A DNA stretch of 63,783 nt, counting the filler, from Basidiobolus ranarum (taxonomy: Eukaryota): assembly GCA_040143965.1 (NCBI GenBank). It is 21 parts of 21 records of this genome, joined end to end, with 100 filler letters (N's around TTAATTAATTAA, not from the genome) between each part and the next. Parts side by side here need not be neighbours in the genome. Positions count along the whole stretch, not along the records: positions 33,521 to 36,460 come from JASJQH010009721.1; positions 36,561 to 39,500 come from JASJQH010009722.1; 19 more parts are not named here. One strand, 5' to 3'. The position numbers and the translations under genes are program-made. This document shows, piece by piece, positions 12,207-63,400 of this stretch; the stretch's first letter is position 1; every line of letters begins with the position of its first letter. The notes below the pieces were generated by a model. That model saw only the letters and a list, made by a program, of their open reading frames with translations, searched no databases and was not told where the DNA came from.

Positions 12207-15155
12207 CGCTACCCGCCTTTTGGCTTCTCGTTCTACCTTCGCTTTGAAGTCTCTCTCAACCCCTTTAGTCGTTAGAGCTCTTCCTAAGCCTACCTTTACC
12301 CCTCGCTTCGCTACTAGACTGGTACACACTGCTAAGCCCCCTGCCAAAGATGTTTTCACTCCCTTGGACACCTTCGTCCGTCGTCACAACGGCTCAGGTG
12401 AACAAGCAATGGGTGAAATGCTCAAGACCGTTGGCGTCAAATCAGTGGATGATCTTATTGCCAAGACCGTTCCATCCTCTATCCGTGCCGCCAAGGCTTT
12501 GGCTTTAGATAACGGATATCCTGAGAGAGAACTCCTCAAACGTTTGAAGGAAATCGCTTCCAAGAACAAGGTTTATCGCTCCTACCTCGGTATGGGTTAC
12601 GCCGATACCGTCGTTCCCAATGTGATTCTCAGAAACATCATGGAGAACCCAGGATGGTACACCCAATATACTCCATACCAAGCTGAGATTGCTCAAGGTC
12701 GTCTTGAGTCATTACTTAACTATCAAACCATGGTCACCGATTTGACTGGCATGGAGATTGCCAACGCCTCATTGCTCGATGAGGGTACCGCCGCTGGTGA
12801 AGCCATGGTGATGTGCTACACCGCTAGCAGAAACAAGAAGAAGACCTTCTTTGTTGATGAGAACTGCCACCCTCAAACCATCGAGGTCTTGAGAACCCGT
12901 GCTGAAGGTTTCGGCATCAACGTTGTCGTCGGAAACTACAAGACCTTCGACTTTGAGGCTGCTCAAAAGGATATCTCCGGTGTTCTTATTCAATACCCAG
13001 CCAACGATGGTATTGTCATTGACTACCAAGAGTTCACCGACAGAATCCACAAACTCGGTGGACAAGTTGTCTGTGCCACTGAACTCCTTGCCTTGACTAT
13101 GCTCAAGCCCCCTGGTGAGTTCGGAGCTGACATCGTGTTGGGTAACAGTCAACGTTTCGGTGTCCCTCTTGGTTATGGTGGCCCACATGCTGCCTTCTTT
13201 GCCTGTACCAAGGACAACGCTAGAAGAATGCCCGGAAGAATTGTCGGTGTATCAAAGGATGCTGCCGGTAAGAAGGCTCTTCGTTTAGCTCTTCAAACTC
13301 GTGAGCAACACATTCGTCGTGAAAAGGCCACTTCCAACATCTGTACCGCTCAGGCTTTGTTGGCTAACATGGCAGCCATGTACGCTGTTTACCACGGTCC
13401 TGAGGGAGTTAAGCAAATTGCCCAAAGAATCCACAACCTCACTTCCATCCTCGCTGAGGGTGTTCGTCGTGCTGGTCACACCGTCAAGAATGAATCATTC
13501 TTCGACACTCTCACCATCAAGGTCAACGGAGGTTCTGAGTCAACCATCAAGAAGGCTGTTGAGAATGGCATCAATCTTCGTCGTATCGATGAGACCACTG
13601 TTGGAGTCACTCTTGATGAAACTGTCACCCGCAAGGATCTCGAGGATCTTCTCAAGGCCTTCTCTGCTGATGGATCAGTCCCTGATGTCTCAGCACTCGC
13701 TGCCGAGGTTGGTGTGAGTGAGAGCAAGCCAGCTCAAAACTTCCCCAGCAACCTTGTTCGTACCTCCAAGTATTTGGAACACGAGATCTTCAACAGCTAT
13801 CACTCTGAGACGGATATGCTTCGTTACATTCACCACTTGCAATCCAAGGATCTCTCCCTTACCCACTCCATGATCCCTCTTGGTTCCTGCACCATGAAGC
13901 TCAATGCCACCACTGAAATGATCCCAGTCACCTGGCCTGAATTTGGCAGCATCCATCCATTCGCACCTGCTGACCAAGTTGAGGGATACAAGATCATGCT
14001 CGATGAGCTTGCCGAAGATCTCGCTGTGATCACCGGCTTTGATGAAGTCTCCCTTCAACCCAACAGTGGTGCTCAAGGAGAGTATGCCGGTCTTCGTACC
14101 ATCAAGGCTTTCCACGAATCCCGTGGTGAAGGCAAGCGTGATGTTTGCTTGATTCCTATCTCTGCTCACGGTACCAACCCTGCTTCCGCCGCCATGGCTG
14201 GTATGAAGGTGGTGATTGTCAACTGCAAGCCTAACGGTAACTTGGATCTTGATGATCTCAAGGCCAAGGCTGAGAAGAACAAGGACAAACTTGCCGCTGT
14301 CATGGTTACCTACCCCTCCACCTATGGTGTATTCGAGGATGGTATCAAGGACTTGTGCGACATCGTACACAACAACGGAGGTCAAGTCTATATGGATGGA
14401 GCTAACATGAACGCTCAGATCGGTCTCTGCTCACCTGGAGAGATTGGTGCTGATGTGTGCCATTTGAACTTGCACAAGACCTTCTGTATTCCTCACGGTG
14501 GTGGTGGCCCAGGTATGGGACCCATCGGTGTCAAGTCTCACTTGGCTCCTTTCTTGCCCGGTCATCCATTGGTTCAGACTGGTGGAGAGAAGGCTATTGG
14601 CCCTATTTCTGCAGCTCCATTCGGTTCATCCAGTATTCTTCCCATCTCTTGGGCATACATCAAGTTGATGGGTGCCAAGGGTATCACTGAAGCTACTGAA
14701 CAAGCCATCCTCAACGCCAACTACATGAGAAGCCGTCTCGAGAACCACTACAAGGTTCTCTTCACCAATGAGAATGGTATGTGTGCTCACGAGTTCATCC
14801 TTGATATTCGTCCATTCGGAGAGACTGCCGGAGTTGAGGCCATCGATGTTGCCAAGCGTCTTCAAGATTATGGTTTCCACTCTCCCACCATGTCATGGCC
14901 TGTTGCCAACACTTTGATGATTGAGCCCACCGAGTCTGAGTCCAAGGCTGAACTTGATCGTTTCTGTGATGCTATGATCTCCATCCGTGAGGAAATCCGT
15001 GCCGTTGAGGAAGGACAACAACCCAAGGATAACAATGTTCTCAAGAACTCACCTCACCCTCTCGATCGTCTTATGGCCAACGAGTGGACTCACCCTTACT
15101 CTCGTGAACAAGCAGCCTATCCTAAGTCATGGTTGAAGGAACGCAAGTTCTGGCC
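12207..15155 (+). CDS. GCV2: Glycine cleavage system P protein (glycine dehydrogenase), both ends truncated
   Basis: [46 protein letters not shown] and the PLP motif HLNLHKTF. Arg/Ser-rich mitochondrial presequence; intronless here. Confidence 0.98.
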
Positions 15156-15255
15156 NNNNNNNNNNNNNNNNNNNNNNNNNNNNNNNNNNNNNNNNNNNNT
15201 TAATTAATTAANNNNNNNNNNNNNNNNNNNNNNNNNNNNNNNNNNNNNNNNNNNN

Positions 15256-16544
15256 TGCGTCAATTTCAGTTCCGTGTAGGTCCCGCAAATTTCGCATTGA
15301 TCCATGTTTCTCTAATCCCGGTTGTTGGATCCGTTGGTGAGCAGAAAACCAAACCTACCCAAGCTAGTATCCGGGATTTACGTGGTTTGGGTCTGAACCC
15401 AGATTTAATAGCCTGCCGTAGCTCGAAGCATCTGGATGAAGGAATTCGTGACAAAATTTCCATGTTTTGTCATGTTAGCCCCGAATGTGTCCTCAATGTT
15501 CGTGATGTTTCTTCCATTTACCACGTTCCTTTATTGCTTCAACAACAAGGTGCACTGGATACTATCCGTAAGAGACTCAATTTGGATTCCATCAGTGTCT
15601 CATCTACCATGATTCGTAAAGGCCATGAATTATGGAGAAAATGGAGACAGATTGCTCTCAGACATGACCATCCTCAAAATGAGGTCAATATTGCATTAGT
15701 CGGAAAATATACATATTTACACGACTCGTACTGCTCCGTAGTCAAGGCATTAGAGCATGCTTCCCTCTCCGTAAACACCAAACTCAATATCAAATGGGTT
15801 GAAGGCTCTGATCTTGAACCAGAATCCCAACAGAAGGATCCTGTTAAATATGCTGATTCTTGGCAATTGGTTACCTCTGCTGATGGTATATTGGTTCCTG
15901 GTGGCTTCGGTATCCGTGGAACCGAGGGTAAAATACTGGCCATCAAATGGGCACGTGAGAACAATATCCCATATCTCGGTATCTGTTTGGGTCTCCAGTT
16001 AGCTGCGATTGAATTTGCACGTAACGTGTGTGGTATAAAGGACGGTCACTCTGAGGAGTTCGTAGAAGATGCTCCTCATTCTATTGCTATATACATGCCC
16101 GAGATTTCTAAAACTCATCTTGGAGGTACTATGCGTTTAGGTGCTCGTCCAACTATATTCCAAGAGGGGTCTGAAAGCAGCAAGATCCGTAGATTGTATA
16201 ATGGAGAAAGGTCTATCGATGAGCGTCATCGTCATAGATATGAGATTAACCCTGCATACATCAAGACGTTAGAATCTCAGGGTCTTAAGTTTGTTGGACA
16301 CGATGAAAGTGGAGAGAGAATGATTATTTTGGAAAAGGAGGATCACCCTTATTTCGTAGCTTCACAATTCCATCCGGAATATATTACTCGTCCTTTAAAA
16401 CCGTCGCCTCCTTTCGTTGGACTGATTCTGGCTGCTGCTGGATTATTAGACCAATATTTGGAATCGAACAGCTTTGCCCTATATGATCCGGACTTGGAAT
16501 CAGACGCACTCTCTGTGGATAAAATTTTGAATGAAACAAATTGA
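15256..16544 (+). CDS. URA7: CTP synthase, C-terminal part
   Basis: GEQKTKPTQ, IALVGKY, VPGGFG.RG, GICLGLQ, GGTMRLG, ERHRHRYEIN, QFHPE. Confidence 0.96.
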
Positions 16545-36294: not shown

Positions 36295-36562
36295 AATATG
36301 TTATCAATCTAAAAAAATGAAGAAAATGAAATAAGTGCACAATTATGCACAATTTAGACCAAAATTCAGCTATGCCATCTGCAAAATTGGATGAAGTACT
36401 GTATGTACCAAATATAGCCAGGAACCCACTCTCAGTAATCCAAGCAACAGCTCAAGGACTNNNNNNNNNNNNNNNNNNNNNNNNNNNNNNNNNNNNNNNN
36501 NNNNTTAATTAATTAANNNNNNNNNNNNNNNNNNNNNNNNNNNNNNNNNNNNNNNNNNNNTT

Positions 36563-36862
36563 TCCTCTGACGACAACCTGACTCTAGAGACCATTTTCCC
36601 AGAGAATAAAATAAATCTGGAAACTATTTTTTCCGATGGCGAATTAACTTTGGAAACTGTTTCCCCCCATGGCAATATTCAAAATTTGGAAACTTTTTCT
36701 TCGGATAATAAAGTTTTAAACTGGGAAATCAAGAGAACGCCAGTTGCGCATTTAGAAGCTGCAGAAACAGAATTAGGGAAAATGTATAATAAGGCTGGGG
36801 GAGTAGTTCCGTTAATTGCATATGTACTAATACCATATGCCTGGAATAAGGTTTGGGGATAA
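36563..36862 (+). CDS. Hypothetical protein C-terminus with 11-12 aa LET[IVF] repeats and a hydrophobic tail
   Basis: Open from the contig start: ...LETIFPENKIN LETIFSDGELT LETVSPHGNIQN LETFSSDNK...VVPLIAYVLIPYAW. Confidence 0.6.
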   Translation, partial: SSDDNLTLETIFPENKINLETIFSDGELTLETVSPHGNIQNLETFSSDNKVLNWEIKRTPVAHLEAAETELGKMYNKAGGVVPLIAYVLIPYAWNKVWG

Positions 36863-36941
36863 ACGTAGTTTATATAACAATAACCAGATTGGTGTCCGGC
36901 GTTCCCTGCCAACGTAGACCATAACTTGTGTACTTATCTAA

Positions 36942-37020
36942 TAACCTTAACCATAACCCAATAACTCTAACCCCCCTTAACCCTACCCCATTAACTTTAA
37001 ACCCTTACCGTAACCTAACA
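36942..37020 (+). repeat. Degenerate (TAACCC)-like tract
   Basis: taacct taacca taaccca taactc taacccccct taaccc taccccat...taccg taacc taac. Confidence 0.7.
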
Positions 37021-38215
37021 ACTTTCAAACGTGAAACAAACCCTCCGACAAAACTTTTTTTCCGAGTTTTAACTTCAGGCGTCTGGGTATCCAAGTTGCC
37101 ATTTAGTGATAGCCAAAAGATCTAAACGCTCTGACAAAACTTTTTTAAAATATATTATTATTTTTAAATAATTTATTGTTATATAGTAACGTTTAAATTA
37201 GGAACACTCCGATTAAACTTTTTAATATTAATTTGGTTTCCAGAGTTAAGATTCTAAGTTGGCCAGTTGTTTAAACTATATATTATCACATTTAATAATT
37301 TAAATTCCGAATCATCCTAAAATTTTTTTATTTGGGTTATTAAATGGTTAAAATTAATGTTAACTCATAGTTGTCTAAACCGTGTTCCTTTAAGATTTTT
37401 TTAACCCTCCAACTAATATTTTTATTTCCAAAAGTTAGATTTGGGTTGGACACTAGTTGCCGCAATTAGACTATTTTAGATTTAATAATTTAGATTTCCA
37501 AACCCTCTGAAAATATTTTTTAACTTAAGATTCGAATTTGGTTTCTAGAAGTTAAAATCTAAGTTAACATGGATGTTATTACAATTAATAATTTAAATCC
37601 CAAATCATCCGAGAAAACTTTTTTTAAAATAATTTTATTTCCAGAAGTTAAATTTAGGTTGGACCTTAGTTGTTGAATATATATATTGTAATAATTACCA
37701 AATTAAAATTCCAAAACCCTCTGAGAAAATATTTTTTTAACTAATATTTGAATTTGGTTTTAAAAAATTAAACTTTAAGTTGAACTATAGTTATTGTAAT
37801 CCGATCAACCCATATTTAATAATTTAAGTTTACAAACTCTCCGATTTAAATTTTTAAAACTTTATTTTGTTCCAAGAGTTTGATTTGAGACCAAACCATA
37901 GTTGTAAAAATTAGATTATACCATATTTAATAATTTAAACTTTTTCAAACTCTCCGGAAAACCTTTTTTAAAACTATTTTTATTTCCAAAATTTGCGTTG
38001 GACCTTAACCTTAGTCGGTGTAATTAGAGTTGATATCATATTTAATAATTTAAACTTCCAATTATCCGAAAAATATTTTTTTATTTCCAAAAGTTAAACT
38101 CTAGTTGTCACAATTGGGTTTTATTATAATTAATGTCCACAAATTTCCAATCATCCAAGAAATATTTTTTTAATTTGGTTTGAATTTGGTTTCCAGAAGT
38201 TAAACTCGAATGTTC
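37021..38215 (+). repeat. AT-rich array of ~12 degenerate 80-120-bp units
   Basis: Recurring TTTAATAATTTAAA..TTCCAAA..CTCCGAAAA.TTTTTT..ATTTCCA(G/A)AAGTTAAA..AAGTTG..TAGTTG. Cores near 37043, 37128, 37207, 37314, 37407, 37504, 37607, 37719, 37839, 37951, 38064 and 38152. Confidence 0.8.
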
Positions 38216-38402
38216 TCACCGTAACCCTAGCTGTTAAATCTATGTTGCATCCAATAAGAATTTTAGATAATGAGTTTTAGATCGCAAAAATATGACGTGT
38301 AACGTTTTATAGATGTTTAATCTAGATTAATAACTTTTTAAAAAGTTTTATTTGGGCAATTAAGTTTAGATTTTAAAACAAAAAGTATACGCATAAACAA
38401 TG

Positions 38403-38848
38403 TTAGTATAGAATTACTGCCATTATAATGCCAAACATTATGCCATATATATTTATATAATTTAAATTCGCAGAAGATGGGGCGGTTTGTGTAACAATAG
38501 AAATGGATATTTTACTACCAGTAGGTTTGGTAGTCATTGGAAGTTGGGTCGACGAGATAGTTGAAGTTGGTGTAGGTAAACCAATGCTGTTTACGGTACC
38601 AGTAGAAAACCCAAGGATTGCATATCCTGCTGATAATTCAGAGCCATCTGATCCAATGATTATAAGATGCAAATATATGTTTGTTTGCGTTTGATTACAT
38701 CCTTTGCACAACCCATATTTTGATATTTTTGAACCCCGCAAATTAGTTTGCGAGGATAACAAATCTGTTTGTTGTATATATTTTCCAGTTGTGCATGAAT
38801 ATGTTCCAAAAGTAAAATAATTAACTTTTGTTTTATCATATTACACAT
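38403..38848 (-). pseudogene. Putative secreted/membrane-anchored Ser/Thr-rich protein split by one frameshift
   Basis: ORF 38660-38848 has a signal-peptide-like start (MIKQKLIILLL..IHAQ). The overlapping ORF 38403-38762 has an S/T/P-rich stalk and a hydrophobic C-terminus. Confidence 0.5.
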
Positions 38849-38851
38849 TTA

Positions 38852-38901
38852 TATTCAAGATAAATTTTTATATATTTTTTAAAAATAGTTTATCTTGAAT
38901 A
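38852..38901. terminator. Intergenic hairpin, 13-bp perfect stem
   Basis: TATTCAAGATAAA (38852-38864) and TTTATCTTGAATA (38889-38901), 12 nt past the stop of ORF 38914-39495. Confidence 0.55.
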
Positions 38902-38913
38902 ATAATCATGTTA

Positions 38914-39500
38914 TTAAGCTTTGTTCATCAGCACGTTTTCATCTTTGACATCCAAAAATATTCTAAATAATTCACTTGAGTTTTGGACTTGTCCATCCAT
39001 TCCTACTACCAATTTTGGATTGGGTGCTTCCTTGACTAACATTTGTCCATAACCCCAAGGTCTGAGTTTAGACATGCCAAATAATATTACCCATAAAACA
39101 ATTAAAGTCCCAGTAAAAAAATTTATTATGTCCATAATTGCGGAAGACCAGTTGTGACTTTTGTATTCTTTGGATGCTTTATAAGTATGGGGTATAATTT
39201 TTACAAGTCCATCACCAGTTTTATCAACCCCAATGTATAGCAAATCTGCATCAGAATAACTGATAACTTGTGTGTCCCAGTTTGTTACGAAAAAATATTC
39301 TTTCTTGTTGTTAAGTGATACTGTTTCAGAGATATCGTATCTAATTACTGGTATTTTGTTGTTGTCACAGGTAACATAACGTCCTCCTGCTTCATAATTA
39401 ACATAATAATACAGGTCACTTAGGGGGCATGAAAAGCACCAGATGGTGTAGACTTTATTTAGCTTAAATACTAATCTAAACAAAGTGACAATCAAGACAT
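38914..39500 (-). CDS. Membrane protein with C-terminal TM and LFG...L.PWG..Q motif, 5' truncated
   Basis: 193-aa intronless ORF with TM segment IINFFTGTLIVLWVILFG followed by MSKLRPWGYGQ. Confidence 0.7.
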
Positions 39501-39617: not shown

Positions 39618-40040
39618 TCATATTGCCACACATGTGTGCACTGTTAGCAATACACCAATATGAACAAAATTTATGGCCATATATACAATTGCCAAAACAG
39701 TTTCGAAACATTTGAGAACGTTAGATATAGCAATGTTAAGGTTGGTTAACTCGTCATCATTGAGAATAAGAGAATATGTTACAGAGGGTCCAAAAAGTGT
39801 ATAGGGAACAACTAAAAATGGTAGACTGAGTGGCGTTAATTCAGAAATACCCTTAACTATATGTAACAGACTTAATATAGCAACTGGCCCGAATATATAA
39901 ATAATAGTTGAATATCCATAAAGACCTATATTAAAATAACCAACCTCGTCTTGAAGCCATGAATTAATAATACATGCCCCGGTGCCAAGAATTGCAAATC
40001 TAAGAATGCAAAAAAATACAAATTTTAATTTTAGCAACAT
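39618..40040 (-). CDS. Hypothetical multi-pass membrane protein (140 aa)
   Basis: Complete ATG-to-stop intronless ORF with 3-4 hydrophobic segments; start context AATAAATG. Confidence 0.6.
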   Translation of the reverse strand: MLLKLKFVFFCILRFAILGTGACIINSWLQDEVGYFNIGLYGYSTIIYIFGPVAILSLLHIVKGISELTPLSLPFLVVPYTLFGPSVTYSLILNDDELTNLNIAISNVLKCFETVLAIVYMAINFVHIGVLLTVHTCVAI

Positions 40041-40229
40041 TTATTTGTTAAGTAACTAATAAGTTGTTGGTATGTAATATTTCATTAATAGTTATGATAA
40101 TAGGGGCCAATCAGATAGTTAAATGCCGAATTGGATTAATAACTAATAACATGCAAAATTTTTAATTAAATTAGTTTCATCCCGAAAAAAAATAAATCCA
40201 ACAGTTTCATCTCGAATAAATTTTTTTCT

Positions 40230-40362
40230 AAAACTATATTTTAATTTCGAGCAAACCATTTGGTTTAAATTTTTTAAAAACTATATTTTAACTTCGAGCA
40301 AACCATTTGGTTTAAATTTTTTAAAAAACTATATTTTAACTTCGAACAAACCATCTGGTTTA
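40230..40362. repeat. Three tandem 47-48-bp repeats with an internal palindrome
   Basis: AAAACTATATTTTAA(C/T)TTCGA(G/A)CAAACCAT(T/C)TGGTTTA at 40230, 40277 and 40325. Confidence 0.92.
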
Positions 40363-54785: not shown

Positions 54786-57719
54786 CAGATACTGAAAAAG
54801 CATGGCTAAGTCTATGGGTATCAGTCTTGGGACTAGCACCGGAATTTATAGGAAGAACCGATTCATTCTTCAGTGTGGGTGGAGATTCGATTATGGCAAT
54901 CAAGTTGGTGGCAGTGGCTCGCAAACATAACTATCGCATTACTGTCCAGAAGTTATTTGAATGGCCAACTATCGCAAAGTTAGCACAACGATGTACGGCT
55001 GTAGAAAATGAGAAAGCATTAATTGAGGAGATTGAACGTTACTCTTTACTTCGTCTAAACCCAGATGAAATAGACCAGTTATTATATGATGAAATTGAGA
55101 AAAACGGTATCGCACCATCTGAAGTCGACGATATGTATCCTTGTGCACCACTGCAAGAGGCGTTGTTCGCTATTGGTCTGAGAACAAAATCAGATTATTT
55201 AGCTCAACAAGTATTTATCTGTGGTGACGCATTGAACATTGATCGACTCAAGGCTGCTTGGTTGCTGGTGATTGAGGCTAATCCTATTCTCCGTACTACC
55301 ATCATGTTTACAAACTCAGGTCATTCACATTTGAGCGGATTGCAAGTAGTTCTTGGAAAAGAGAGTATCGACTGGAGACAAGTGAATGTTGAGAAGAATG
55401 AGAGCATGGATGAGGCACTTTCGAAGGTGTTAGAAGATGACCGGGAGCGTGGTATTGAAGCTGGGAAGCTGTTGACGAGATTTACTGTATTGACAAGTGA
55501 AGATGGAGTCTTATATTTTATATGGACAATTCATCACACACTGTACGACGGGTGGTCAATGGATCTCATTCTCAATGATCTTGTGACAGCTTATCAAGGC
55601 CAAGAAGTAGCCGCTAGGCCATCATACTCTCATTTCATCAATTATAATCTACAGCTTAGTAGAGAGGAATCAATTAACTACTGGTCTAATGTACTTAACG
55701 GGGTTACAAATACATGTATATCGAAAGCTTCATCGCTATCTCAAAAAGTAGAAGCACCCAAGGTAATGACATCGCGGATTCCTATCGACTTTGCAGAAAT
55801 CACCACCAAACACAACATCACCTTGGCCACTATCATAAACTTGGCCTGGGCAATCGTGTTAAAATATCATACTGGGAACTCAGATGTGGTCTTTGGAACG
55901 GTCAACTCTGGACGAAATGTTCCTGTGGATGGAATTGATCAAATTTGTGGACCTTGCTTAACAACACTACCAGTCAGAGTTAAACTTGAGGAAGACCTGA
56001 CAATTGCAGAAGTTATGTCTGGTATGCATGTCGAGCAGTTGGAACAATATCGCTATCAAAACATTGGCCTGCAAGATATTCAAAAGGAGTGCATCAATGT
56101 CCAAAATGCCAATCTATTTGATTCTCTCATTGTTGTGCAGAATCTTGGTATGAATAATATCGATGCCTTGATGAGTTCTGTTGGATTAGTGGCGATCAAA
56201 TCAGTAATGATACCAGATTTTCCACTGGTGGTGGAAATATTGATTGGCACTAATAATCATGAGATAACAATACATTATGATGAACGTAGAGTGCCGCTTG
56301 ACGAAGTCAATTCACTGTTGGGCCATTTTAGAACTGCACTAGTAAATATTGAAGCTAATGCTTCCACTCTAGTGAATGATTTCAGTATTATATCCCAATC
56401 AGAGTACCAACTACTGGACATGTGGGGAAGTGCATTGATAGATAACATCAATCATGGGTGCATTCATACTCTTTTTGAAGAACAGGTGTTGCGTACTCCC
56501 AACAACATTGCTGTGCAATTCGAGAAGAGTGAATATGTGACATATTCAGAGTTGAACAGAAGAGCAAATAGACTGGCATATTTTCTCATAGAATCAGGGG
56601 TTGGAGTTGAGTCGCTTGTACCATTGTGTTTCGACAAATCGATTGACATGGTCGTGGCAATGCTTGCTGTCCTCAAGGCTGGAGGTGCGTACGTACCGAT
56701 GGATCCTTCAAATCCTGATGAGCGCAATCATTTTATCATCCAAGAGACCCAAGCTCGAATTGTTGTGACAACAGGCAATTTCATCGCCAAGTTTGCTGAA
56801 ATGGATGTCACGACTATTGATACCCGTGCTCGATTGTTGTCCAGTCAGTCGGTCGACAATCCAGTTCTTCCAGGACTTAATAGCAGGAACCTGTGCTATG
56901 TAATTTATACATCTGGGTCTACTGGAACTCCAAAGGGTGTTATGCTCGAGCATGCTTCAGTGGTAAACTTTATCACAGGCTTGAACACAATATGGAATCA
57001 AGGATGGGATGATAATATATTGCAGTTTGCTAGTTACACATTCGATGCTTCCGTTGTTACAATATTTGCCACACTACTCACTGGAGCTCGCATATGTATG
57101 GCTAGTAAAGAATCATTGTTGTCAAATTTGGGTGGCATAATCGAGTCGATGAACATCACTTGCGCAGAGCTCACTCCTACCGTTGCAAGTCAAATTCAGC
57201 CACTAGAATGCCCCAGTCTTAAGAAGTTAATTCTGGGTGGTGAAATGGTAACAAATTCTATTCGAGATACATGGGCACCGCATGTTCAGCTAAGTAATGG
57301 ATATGGACCAACTGAAGCCGCAGTTGGAGTTACGATCAATCACTCCGTATCCGAAAGCACACAATGCAGAAATGTTGGAATGCCATTGCCGAACAACAAG
57401 ATCTTCATACTTGATTCCAATCTTCGAATTGTGCCACTGGGAGTGGTTGGTGAGTTGTGCATTTCTGGTATTCAACTTGCTCGAGGCTACCTGAATAGAC
57501 CGGACTTGACAGCAAAAACCTTTGTCGAAAATCCCTTCACTCCTGGAGAAAGAATGTACCTCACTGGTGACTTAGCGAAGTTCAGTTATGATGGCTCCAT
57601 CGAGATAGTTGGAAGAAAGGATAATCAAATCAAGCTTCATGGTCTAAGAATCGAATTGGAGGAGATAGAGCACATCATTCATCAACAAACAAGTGTTGCC
57701 AATACCTGTGTCCTTCCAG
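54786..57719 (+). CDS. Non-ribosomal peptide synthetase internal fragment (T-C-A)
   Basis: PCP FFSVGGDSI; C domain YPCAPLQE and HHTLYDGWS; A domain TYSELNRRAN, YVIYTSGSTGTPKG, FDAS, NGYGPTE, GEL...G..LARGYL, YLTGD, GRKDNQIKLHGLRIEL. Confidence 0.97.
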
Positions 57720-57819
57720 NNNNNNNNNNNNNNNNNNNNNNNNNNNNNNNNNNNNNNNNNNNNTTAATTAATTAANNNNNNNNNNNNNNNNNNNNNNNNN
57801 NNNNNNNNNNNNNNNNNNN

Positions 57820-62273: not shown

Positions 62274-63400
62274 GGCCAGCTAAAAAGTATGCCGGCACAA
62301 ATTGGCATGATTGGGCACTATCCGGCATGATGTTATTTACTGCTTTGGAAACAGTCTATTTTACTTATGTGATATAATTGAGAAATGTATCATTAGACAT
62401 TATTGCAAATTCAAAGATGAAGAAAGCTTTATTCATAGTTTCTTAAGTCTAGAGCTATCAATGGATATCTTTGAGTATGAATGTATTGAGAATTAATCAA
62501 GATTTTGACTGCTTTGCCTAACTTTGATTGAGGCCCATAAAATAAATTTCCTCTATAATTTCCTGCCACAATGCTATATCTCTTTAGGAAATCAAAGCTA
62601 TGTTCTACTCTTGCTCTAAAAAGGGAAAAGATGTCATTATAAAGCTTTTGCCTCTCTGTGAGTATCCTTCCACTGGGCCCCTTATTAGCAGTGACACAGC
62701 CTAGCCTTCTGCATTCTTCCCCAACATAAGCCAAATCAGCCATAGTCTTCTCATATTGTACAAATGGTGCATGCCTCTCAACCCAAAGCCTTTTGTCATG
62801 GTGTCTCCATGAATGTGACCCACTAAACCAAAGGATGTTTCCTTCCAAATCTGTTAACGCCTGGAACTTTACACAGTGGGCTTTGTACTTGAAAGAATAG
62901 AATAGCTTTTGGTTGCTTTTGGGCCTGTTAAATCTAACTGTAAATGTTTCAAGAATACTTCTGATATGAACTCTATTGGGAAATACTCCTGGATTTGGAA
63001 GGCAATTAGAGTCTCTAAATCTTTTGTCCCAGGCACCTTCAACATCATTCATCACTAAAGCTAGATTATTTTCAGTTACCTGAAGCCTTGTATGGAAGCT
63101 TCTCCAACTTTTGCTACCATTAATAGTGCACTAAAATCTGATTGAACAATAGTTTTTGTAGTAACAAAACAAATAGACCAGCTGCTTTCTGGTAGGTATT
63201 GGAGTATATGAGCCACAGTATTTCTCAAGTATAGCTTCTATGGTGGTGATAGGAAAGCCAGTAGTTGCTTTTGGATTAATCAGGAATGACCATTTAGAGT
63301 AGATTAAGAGCATGATATTAATCTTGTGTAGAGGTGGCACAATACTGCTCAATCTGGCATGTGTAGGTTATTTATCTAAGAATTTCAATTACTATGGTAA
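62274..63400 (-). mobile_element. PIF/Harbinger-type (DDE_Tnp_4-like) transposase, disrupted, with candidate TIR
   Basis: YSFKYKAHCVKFQ, H.W..HDK, MADLAY, YN..FS..RARVEHSF..LK. N-terminal part in ORF 63131-63352. GGCCAGCTAAA at 62274 is a candidate terminus. Confidence 0.82.

Follow-up and report, generated by a model that had tools for sequence, protein, structure and literature searches.

Fundsalphaviruses are endogenous elements of early-diverging fungi that resemble nucleocytoplasmic large DNA viruses (NCLDVs) and stand close to Pithovirus, and they have been reported in Basidiobolus meristosporus and Basidiobolus heterosporus (Gong, Zhang and Han 2020, PMC7017919). In the Pithoviridae, non-coding repeat clusters known as M1 and M2 lie between genes and are described as places where gene capture and rearrangement are concentrated and GTP-binding genes enriched (Rigou et al. 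2023, PMC10664404), and the available part of another account gives pithovirus-like genomes as being without a packaging ATPase (PMC6401483). The Mycodnaviridae of zoosporic fungi, which are related to Imitervirales and Algavirales and have a recognisable major capsid protein (MCP), occur in integrated as well as high-coverage states, the latter at ~50-fold in one Allomyces strain, and in the portion of that report available no MCP is given for 40 genomes of non-zoosporic fungi (Myers et al. 2026, PMC13533422). The present analysis concerns a single unplaced contig of Basidiobolus ranarum, JASJQH010009722.1 (2,940 bases; hereafter C9722), taken from a fungal assembly of 65 Mb in 13,754 contigs (GCA_040143965.1). 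C9722 is exactly the segment 36561..39500 of the window, i.e., the whole stretch of 63,783 nucleotides that was analysed, which strings together 21 unrelated contigs of ~2.94 kb each with N/TTAATTAATTAA linkers; it is discontinuous DNA, and the neighbours of C9722 in it are unrelated. With a rough probability of a little under 0.6, C9722 is a broken copy of the accessory region of a fundsalphavirus-type (pithovirus-like) DNA virus, the intact high-copy form of which is probably replicating in the fungus.

Of the three genes on C9722 two are damaged, and the contig as a whole represents a cluster of genes in broken form. Three versions of this cluster are present in the assembly, namely C9722 itself, the pair formed by C11626 and C10735 (which overlap by 111 identical bases), and C1634, and both minus-strand genes recur in conserved order on C11626 and C1634. 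C9722 has suffered a deletion and the insertion of a long interspersed nuclear element (LINE), and C1634, where the gene order is unchanged, shows a premature TAG as well as a frameshift and also holds two C9722-family arrays and one further gene. The frames on C11626 and C10735 are open and code for an AIG1-like GTPase (assigned by a Pfam match of E 2e-4, which lies below the cut-off), a secreted protein, a membrane protein and a putative glycosylphosphatidylinositol (GPI)-type protein, the last so labelled from its hydrophobic ends and Ser/Thr linker. On C10735 the GTPase frame occupies 900-1775 and is followed at 1850-2050 by the beginning of a second P-loop protein; the MG-C start of the GTPase is what we take to be a possible lipid anchor.

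The three versions differ sharply in sequencing depth. Depth was taken from the assembled contigs of four out of five listed runs (X1, X2, X3 and X5), of which X1 is probably the source sample, hence not independent, and the other three belong to one other study; contig depth is a crude figure, with no single-copy nuclear control and no library type on record. In X1, five short contigs at depth 1,737-2,061 cover the first open reading frame (ORF1, at 1,737-1,825), the telomere-like tract, the start of the repeat array and the membrane gene, and C9722's own alleles are found at depth 10.3 and 5.4. Where these deep contigs differ from C9722 they carry the C11626 allele at all seven checked sites, with the count of 10 differences matching exactly, and an X1 contig with 24 differences at depth 14.4 carries the C1634 allele at all four checked sites, again with an exact match in count. 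Depth follows intactness, at ~2,000 for the C11626 version, 14 for C1634 and 5-10 for C9722, and the intact version is ~150-200x deeper than the broken versions in this run. The left 700 bases of C9722 match the deep version and the low-depth contig differs from the assembly at 18 places; the assembler appears to have joined the high-depth left end (36561 to ~37300) to the low-depth insertion via the shared array. The description of the segment as endogenous in the initial annotation holds for the right-hand two thirds of C9722 only; its left end matches a version ~200x deeper. Five host contigs (C428, C4028, C4393, C8232 and C1643) end in tips of 35-111 bases that are 99-100% identical to the intact contigs, and these tips are probably chimeras with the abundant DNA.

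It is conceivable, if unlikely, that the origin is viral but that all copies are integrated fossils, the depth being a library or amplification artefact or the product of a recent chromosomal tandem amplification. The missing library record and nuclear depth control leave room for such an account, and the available part of the earlier work describes these elements solely as endogenous (PMC7017919). A Pfam search for the MCP (PF04451) likewise gave no match in this fragmented assembly, although it also matched 0 of 14 controls, so that it is no evidence of absence. What speaks against fossils is that depth is even across five separate X1 pieces while intact alleles are deep and broken ones shallow, and that the three runs of the second study (X2, X3 and X5) contain ORF1 and the membrane gene again, at 88-96% identity.

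A viral origin of the C9722 cluster is likely. The proposal of a large-DNA-virus source has indirect support, through homology to contigs with virus-type core genes in the same genome and in metagenomes. The C-terminal 38 residues of ORF1 match the C-terminus of an ORF lying beside a virus-type RPB5 on C2679 (39% identity, pairwise E 1e-7), with a score reached by 0 of 2000 shuffles, and the compact RPB5 itself matches that of two metagenomic NCLDV-type contigs (E 8e-15 and 2e-12). The further gene of C1634, which is flanked by arrays, is also carried at 99% by C12486, a contig that encodes a protein nearly identical to a database protein labelled Basidiobolus ranarum; the gene has no Pfam match and presumably resembles proteins of the restriction-endonuclease fold. 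Relatives of this gene were found at nine metagenomic loci. The three loci that exceed 10 kb are densely packed with genes, and all of them include virus-type RNA polymerase genes (RPB2 or RPB1), to which they variously add RPB5, helicases, a capping enzyme, a ligase, MutS-HNH, DUF5757 and DUF5906, with capping, helicase, MutS-HNH or primase-type genes at two of the three; the other six, at 1.3-3.5 kb, are uninformative. Elsewhere in the B. ranarum genome, off C9722, are RPB2, RPB5 and a piece of RPB1, as well as a compact, uninterrupted family B DNA polymerase (PolB) frame on C12581. In a tree of RPB2, five copies from this genome group with two metagenomic viral RPB2 sequences at 100/100, apart from six host-type rows, which were labelled Pol I-III from sequence. 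Searches of IMG/VR, PolB included, found no relative. Older virus-type RNA polymerase copies with stops are present on C7085, C644, C4434 and C718, with observed/expected (o/e) CpG of 0.03-0.39 on the first three, and together they form a natural age series of insertions.

Two of these core genes lie next to arrays of another kind. Beside the virus-type RPB5 on C2679 (1-920) and the RPB2 end on C4868 (560-1547) there is a second AT-rich array family, a 90-base piece of which is also joined to a Copia element on C1622, and the existence of two array families is one reason to consider an entity of high copy number that lacks a capsid, either a replicon or a giant mobile element, and that is distinct from the core-gene virus and has swapped a few genes with it. 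We judge such a separate replicon improbable. The accessory genes were not found beside core genes, the MCP search and a search of the genome for the A32 packaging ATPase (PF04665) both returned 0 matches, and no MCP is given for the 40 non-zoosporic genomes in what is available of that survey (PMC13533422), all of which would suit it. On the other side, the two array families share a short motif, and only that, and the ORF1 family is common to both; the absence of A32 is expected because pithovirus-like genomes are given as lacking it (PMC6401483), and the failure of the MCP search on its own controls deprives that result of force. Nor did the five contigs show any transposase or recombinase, although no genome-wide search for one was made.

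The composition of C9722 was initially held to be unlike that of host genes and transposable elements. Its AT-richness is real, with a GC content of 0.299 that is the lowest among the 21 window contigs (0.33-0.50 in the others). Its CpG o/e of 0.75 contrasts with 0.03-0.10 in 7 of the 21; since 9 of the 20 other contigs have values of 0.65-0.84, however, CpG retention sets C9722 apart from host repeats and not from host genes. The intact contigs have CpG o/e of 0.78-1.29 (0.77-1.39 when intact element and core contigs are taken together), in contrast to two broken RPB2 loci, with 0.03 and 0.12, and one LINE, with 0.02. Because the intact contigs keep CpG while the broken RPB2 loci and the LINE have lost it, a long-resident nuclear repeat of 200 copies is unlikely. 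GC at third codon positions (GC3) is 0.23-0.33 in element genes against 0.30-0.53 in 12 host genes, and a codon test scores all nine element genes as viral (+0.085 to +0.16 per codon) and, of the 12 host genes, 10 as host; this test mostly tracks AT content, since both transposon genes tested also score positive. These figures bear on the notion of a host multi-copy repeat family, for instance subtelomeric, with telomere-like tracts, satellites and cell-surface genes. Basidiobolus ranarum has a large genome with many chromosomes, a TAACCC-like tract is present, the GPI-type genes have a host-like paralog on C3090, and two array-like units lie in a host context on C7719. A host family is nevertheless quite improbable, as host repeats are stripped of CpG (o/e 0.02-0.10) and the element is not, GC3 tends to be lower in its genes than in those of the host, the homology leads to viral contigs, and the tract is internal and degenerate.

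The damage to the two minus-strand genes can be read in detail by comparison with their paralogs. The frame of the GPI-type remnant has no start; counted from the upstream stop it comes to 97 bases and its intact paralog to 332, a shortfall of 235 bases, and in place of 102 letters of the window contig 11 of run X2 has 343. The intergenic gap of ~65 nt that was noted first is there, the stop at 38914 and the ATG at 38848 lying 65 nt apart. The TAAATG proposed as a gene start, in contrast, opens a frame of 62 residues without a Pfam match and is not the start of the conserved gene, whose paralog-bearing frame is another one, and the hairpin beside it, though a stable fold (z -5.4; 0 of 200 shuffles equally stable), is absent from the spacer of the intact paralog (z 0.06). 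Because the TAAATG is out of frame and the hairpin is missing from the intact spacer, both mark the deletion scar, and their reading as viral gene-control signals was rejected. As to intronless ORFs, the one basis that stands is the long open frames of the paralogs (300 and 224 codons). The long minus-strand ORF of C9722 is in part host LINE: its first 27 codons (39500-39417) are the LINE tail, and of at least 151 matches to it 148 are to that tail, nearly all to residues 1-35. An upstream reverse transcriptase domain in the same sense (RVT_1 on C12853, E 1.7e-10), together with an end stub common to the copies, identifies this stretch as a LINE tail, and a reading of it as a long terminal repeat was rejected. 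Contig 8 of run X1 spans the junction between the LINE and the membrane gene. Contaminating DNA of another cellular organism, which short, unplaced contigs of odd composition might suggest, is very improbable given that the gene adjoins an exact 3' end of a host LINE and a run contig crosses the junction, and given the decayed copies in the same assembly and the recurrence of the element in a second study.

The left part of C9722 consists of ORF1, which holds three repeats of 33-36 nt (36613-36706), the telomere-like tract and the array (Table 1). Both repeat features described at the outset proved real: the tract is a degenerate TAACCC-like sequence with a period of 30 in two copies (83%), and the 1.2-kb array, with units of ~110 nt, searched with a profile built solely from units of two other contigs, gave 12 matches (nine with E<1e-5, up to 52 bits), against one match of 3.8 bits in 50 locally shuffled copies. 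Its full-length core units are mostly 60-72% alike, and arrays of this family also lie between genes on C1634 and C12486. The units are not palindromic, as all five that were folded, including four of four from the window, gave z between -1.9 and +1.7. C12486 starts with 99 bases that are 98% identical to window 37206-37304 and continues with array units of its own; an origin of the long array as a simple fusion of the C12486 and C1634 arrays is unsupported, the 98% match being confined to those 99 bases and the remainder reaching 66-84%. The 15-nt motif shared with the second array family has five matches in the genome, one of them (C8003) in unrelated host DNA, against 0 for its reversed control; it was selected after inspection and is a weak link. 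Two weak array-like units are present at 3730-3924 of C7719 (E 0.002 and 0.07), a contig that is otherwise host-like. On the next, unrelated contig of the window, a 47-nt AT-rich tandem array of three copies with CpG present (40217-40362) edges a CpG-depleted retroelement and is not matched by the C9722 array model; the same contig has a hydrophobic ORF of 140 residues at 39618-40040. Ordinary-looking genes lie on other window contigs (12409-15207, 15462-16544, 54893-57775 and 62429-63052), and from their translations we take these to be a glycine dehydrogenase, a CTP synthase, a nonribosomal peptide synthetase fragment and a DDE transposase.

Table 1. Features of C9722 and deep X1 contigs, in window positions.
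Feature	Position	Strand	Basis or remark
ORF1, 3' gene end cut by contig start, 99 aa	36563..36862	+	ORF calls
Degenerate TAACCC-like tract	36945..37031	+	Repeat detection; length differs between runs
Head-to-tail array, ~12 diverged AT-rich units of 80-120 nt	37037..38254	+	Repeat detection, profile search
15-nt motif	38215..38229	-	Shared with the other array type, next to virus-type RPB2 on C4868, and with the C1622 tip
GPI-type gene remnant (putative), 5'-truncated: secreted, Ser/Thr linker, hydrophobic tail	38403..38840	-	Homology from ~38822
Hairpin at deletion scar, beside out-of-frame TAAATG	38847..38906	.	Fold versus shuffles
Two-transmembrane protein gene, 3' part	38914..39416	-	Paralog on C11626 intact
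3' tail of abundant host LINE, ending in CCCCCTAA stub, inserted in membrane-protein gene	39417..39500	-	Matches across genome
X1 deep contigs	36577-36671, 36703-36788, 37171-37273	.	0 differences to C9722
X1 deep contig	36992-37102	.	2 differences to C9722
X1 deep contig	39035-39145	.	10 differences to C9722

The membrane protein is the accessory product with the most suggestive structure. The intact C11626 protein was modelled with a predicted local distance difference test (pLDDT) score of 60 as a fold like that of ENaC, the animal acid-sensing ion channels (ASIC) and PAC, with two predicted terminal transmembrane helices around a beta-rich ectodomain, in the manner of the ENaC/DEG-PAC superfamily. 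ENaC/ASIC/DEG and PAC families occupy the top ranks in two fold searches, and within Foldseek ranks 1-20 each of the 18 rows shown is a PAC/ASOR structure (best E 3.7e-5). Compared with ENaC/ASIC/DEG and PAC (TMEM206) proteins, however, the C11626 protein has only 5-12% identity and no Pfam match, and confidence in the model is modest; more broadly, six window frames and eight paralog frames searched against Pfam gave nothing above the cut-off. No relatives of the membrane protein came up in word-index protein searches, and a profile search found three proteins, without context. ESM Atlas gave no usable match for two proteins, and BFVD gave 0 matches at E<=0.001, the best being a Catovirus protein at E 0.029, which is a lead only. 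No report of an ENaC/DEG- or PAC-type channel in viruses was found in the literature searched, outside which most subscription papers lie. If the likeness is true, a virus-borne ENaC/PAC-like protein would extend this channel fold to large DNA viruses and be a candidate for altering the host.

Several observations weigh against a broken accessory region of a replicating fundsalphavirus-type virus. Neither C9722 nor any contig overlapping it carries a core viral gene, and the membrane, secreted and GTPase genes had no match at any of the nine metagenomic loci. The RPB2 tree has long branches, four rows less than half filled and no named viral reference. The C9722 array model (R1) misses the arrays on C2679 and C4868, and with different arrays beside RPB5 and RPB2 more than one virus or element may be present. 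Depths of ORF1 and the membrane gene are unequal in the second study (33.8 and 22.9 in X2, 394 and 49 in X3, 24.5 and 8.5 in X5), which speaks against their always lying on one molecule, and amplification bias may play a part since the library type is unrecorded and there is no single-copy control. A Racocetra assembly, too, contains a homolog of the array-flanked gene. Lastly, the GPI-type gene has its host-like paralog on C3090 (1565-2221; GC 0.46) downstream of a LINE tail, and this paralog is a possible donor or a domesticated copy.

Under the preferred interpretation, that of a fundsalphavirus-type virus with C9722 as a broken piece of its accessory region, a pithovirus-like DNA element would persist at high copy in the fungus, with repeat arrays between accessory genes comparable to the repeat-rich, GTPase-enriched variable regions described for pithoviruses (PMC10664404). 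Pieces would integrate occasionally and then decay via deletion, LINE insertion and CpG loss, C9722 holding one such piece; the two low-depth versions would be chromosomal insertions from earlier infections, and the high-depth version would stay outside the chromosomes and escape the CpG decay of host repeats and old viral insertions. The arrays may be viral intergenic repeats that favour recombination and are possible origins, the membrane protein might, from its modelled fold, form an ENaC/PAC-like channel that shifts the ion balance of the infected cell, and the secreted proteins could remodel the cell surface. Active replication of the intact form is plausible but unproven. The fuller picture, in which a living high-copy pithovirus-like replicon, possibly capsid-less, leaves insertions of varied age and encodes an ENaC/PAC-fold channel and cell-surface proteins, is tentative. 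If that picture were true, fundsalphaviruses would no longer be fossils but an infection that can be cultured, in a non-zoosporic fungus, and viruses would gain a new class of channel, none having been found reported in the literature searched; the fungal hosts in which active giant-virus infection has so far been demonstrated are zoosporic, and the viruses belong to a different family. Were the ~200-fold depth to reflect replication, existing Basidiobolus cultures would allow tests of whether the lineage is still alive, whether it forms particles and by what route it spreads, given that no capsid is obvious. Should the depth be artefactual, what remains is a set of new accessory genes from an endogenous element of a kind already known.

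Set beside the known systems, the locus resembles each in part. The Mycodnaviridae are the nearest precedent for the combination of integrated and high-coverage states and are a different family; Basidiobolus, unlike their hosts, is non-zoosporic, and the MCP that marks them was not matched here in a search that missed its own controls (PMC13533422). The C9722-type arrays are, like M1 and M2 of the Pithoviridae, non-coding repeat clusters between genes and of similar size, whereas M1 and M2 are palindromes that have terminal inverted repeats and the C9722 units run head-to-tail and fold no better than shuffles (PMC10664404). Fundsalphaviruses were described as fossils found via polymerase probes, the available part of their account mentions no high-copy intact form, intergenic arrays or channel-like or secreted accessory genes, and none of the six shared fundsalphavirus genes given there (RPB1, RPB2, RPB5, D5, SNF2 helicase and SAM methyltransferase) is on C9722 (PMC7017919). 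New are the contrast in depth, the cluster of accessory genes and the likeness to a channel fold; the lineage is already known. Indeed, the undescribed lineage proposed in the initial annotation is probably not undescribed, and most likely belongs to the fundsalphaviruses reported from two other Basidiobolus species (PMC7017919). The host genus is the same, the genome has virus-type PolB, RPB1, RPB2 and RPB5, the RNA polymerase genes being tied to C9722 through ORF1 homology and the array only, and broken copies near retroelements are found here as there, in the LINE tail and deletion of C9722, the premature TAG of C1634 and the CpG-depleted RPB2 copies.

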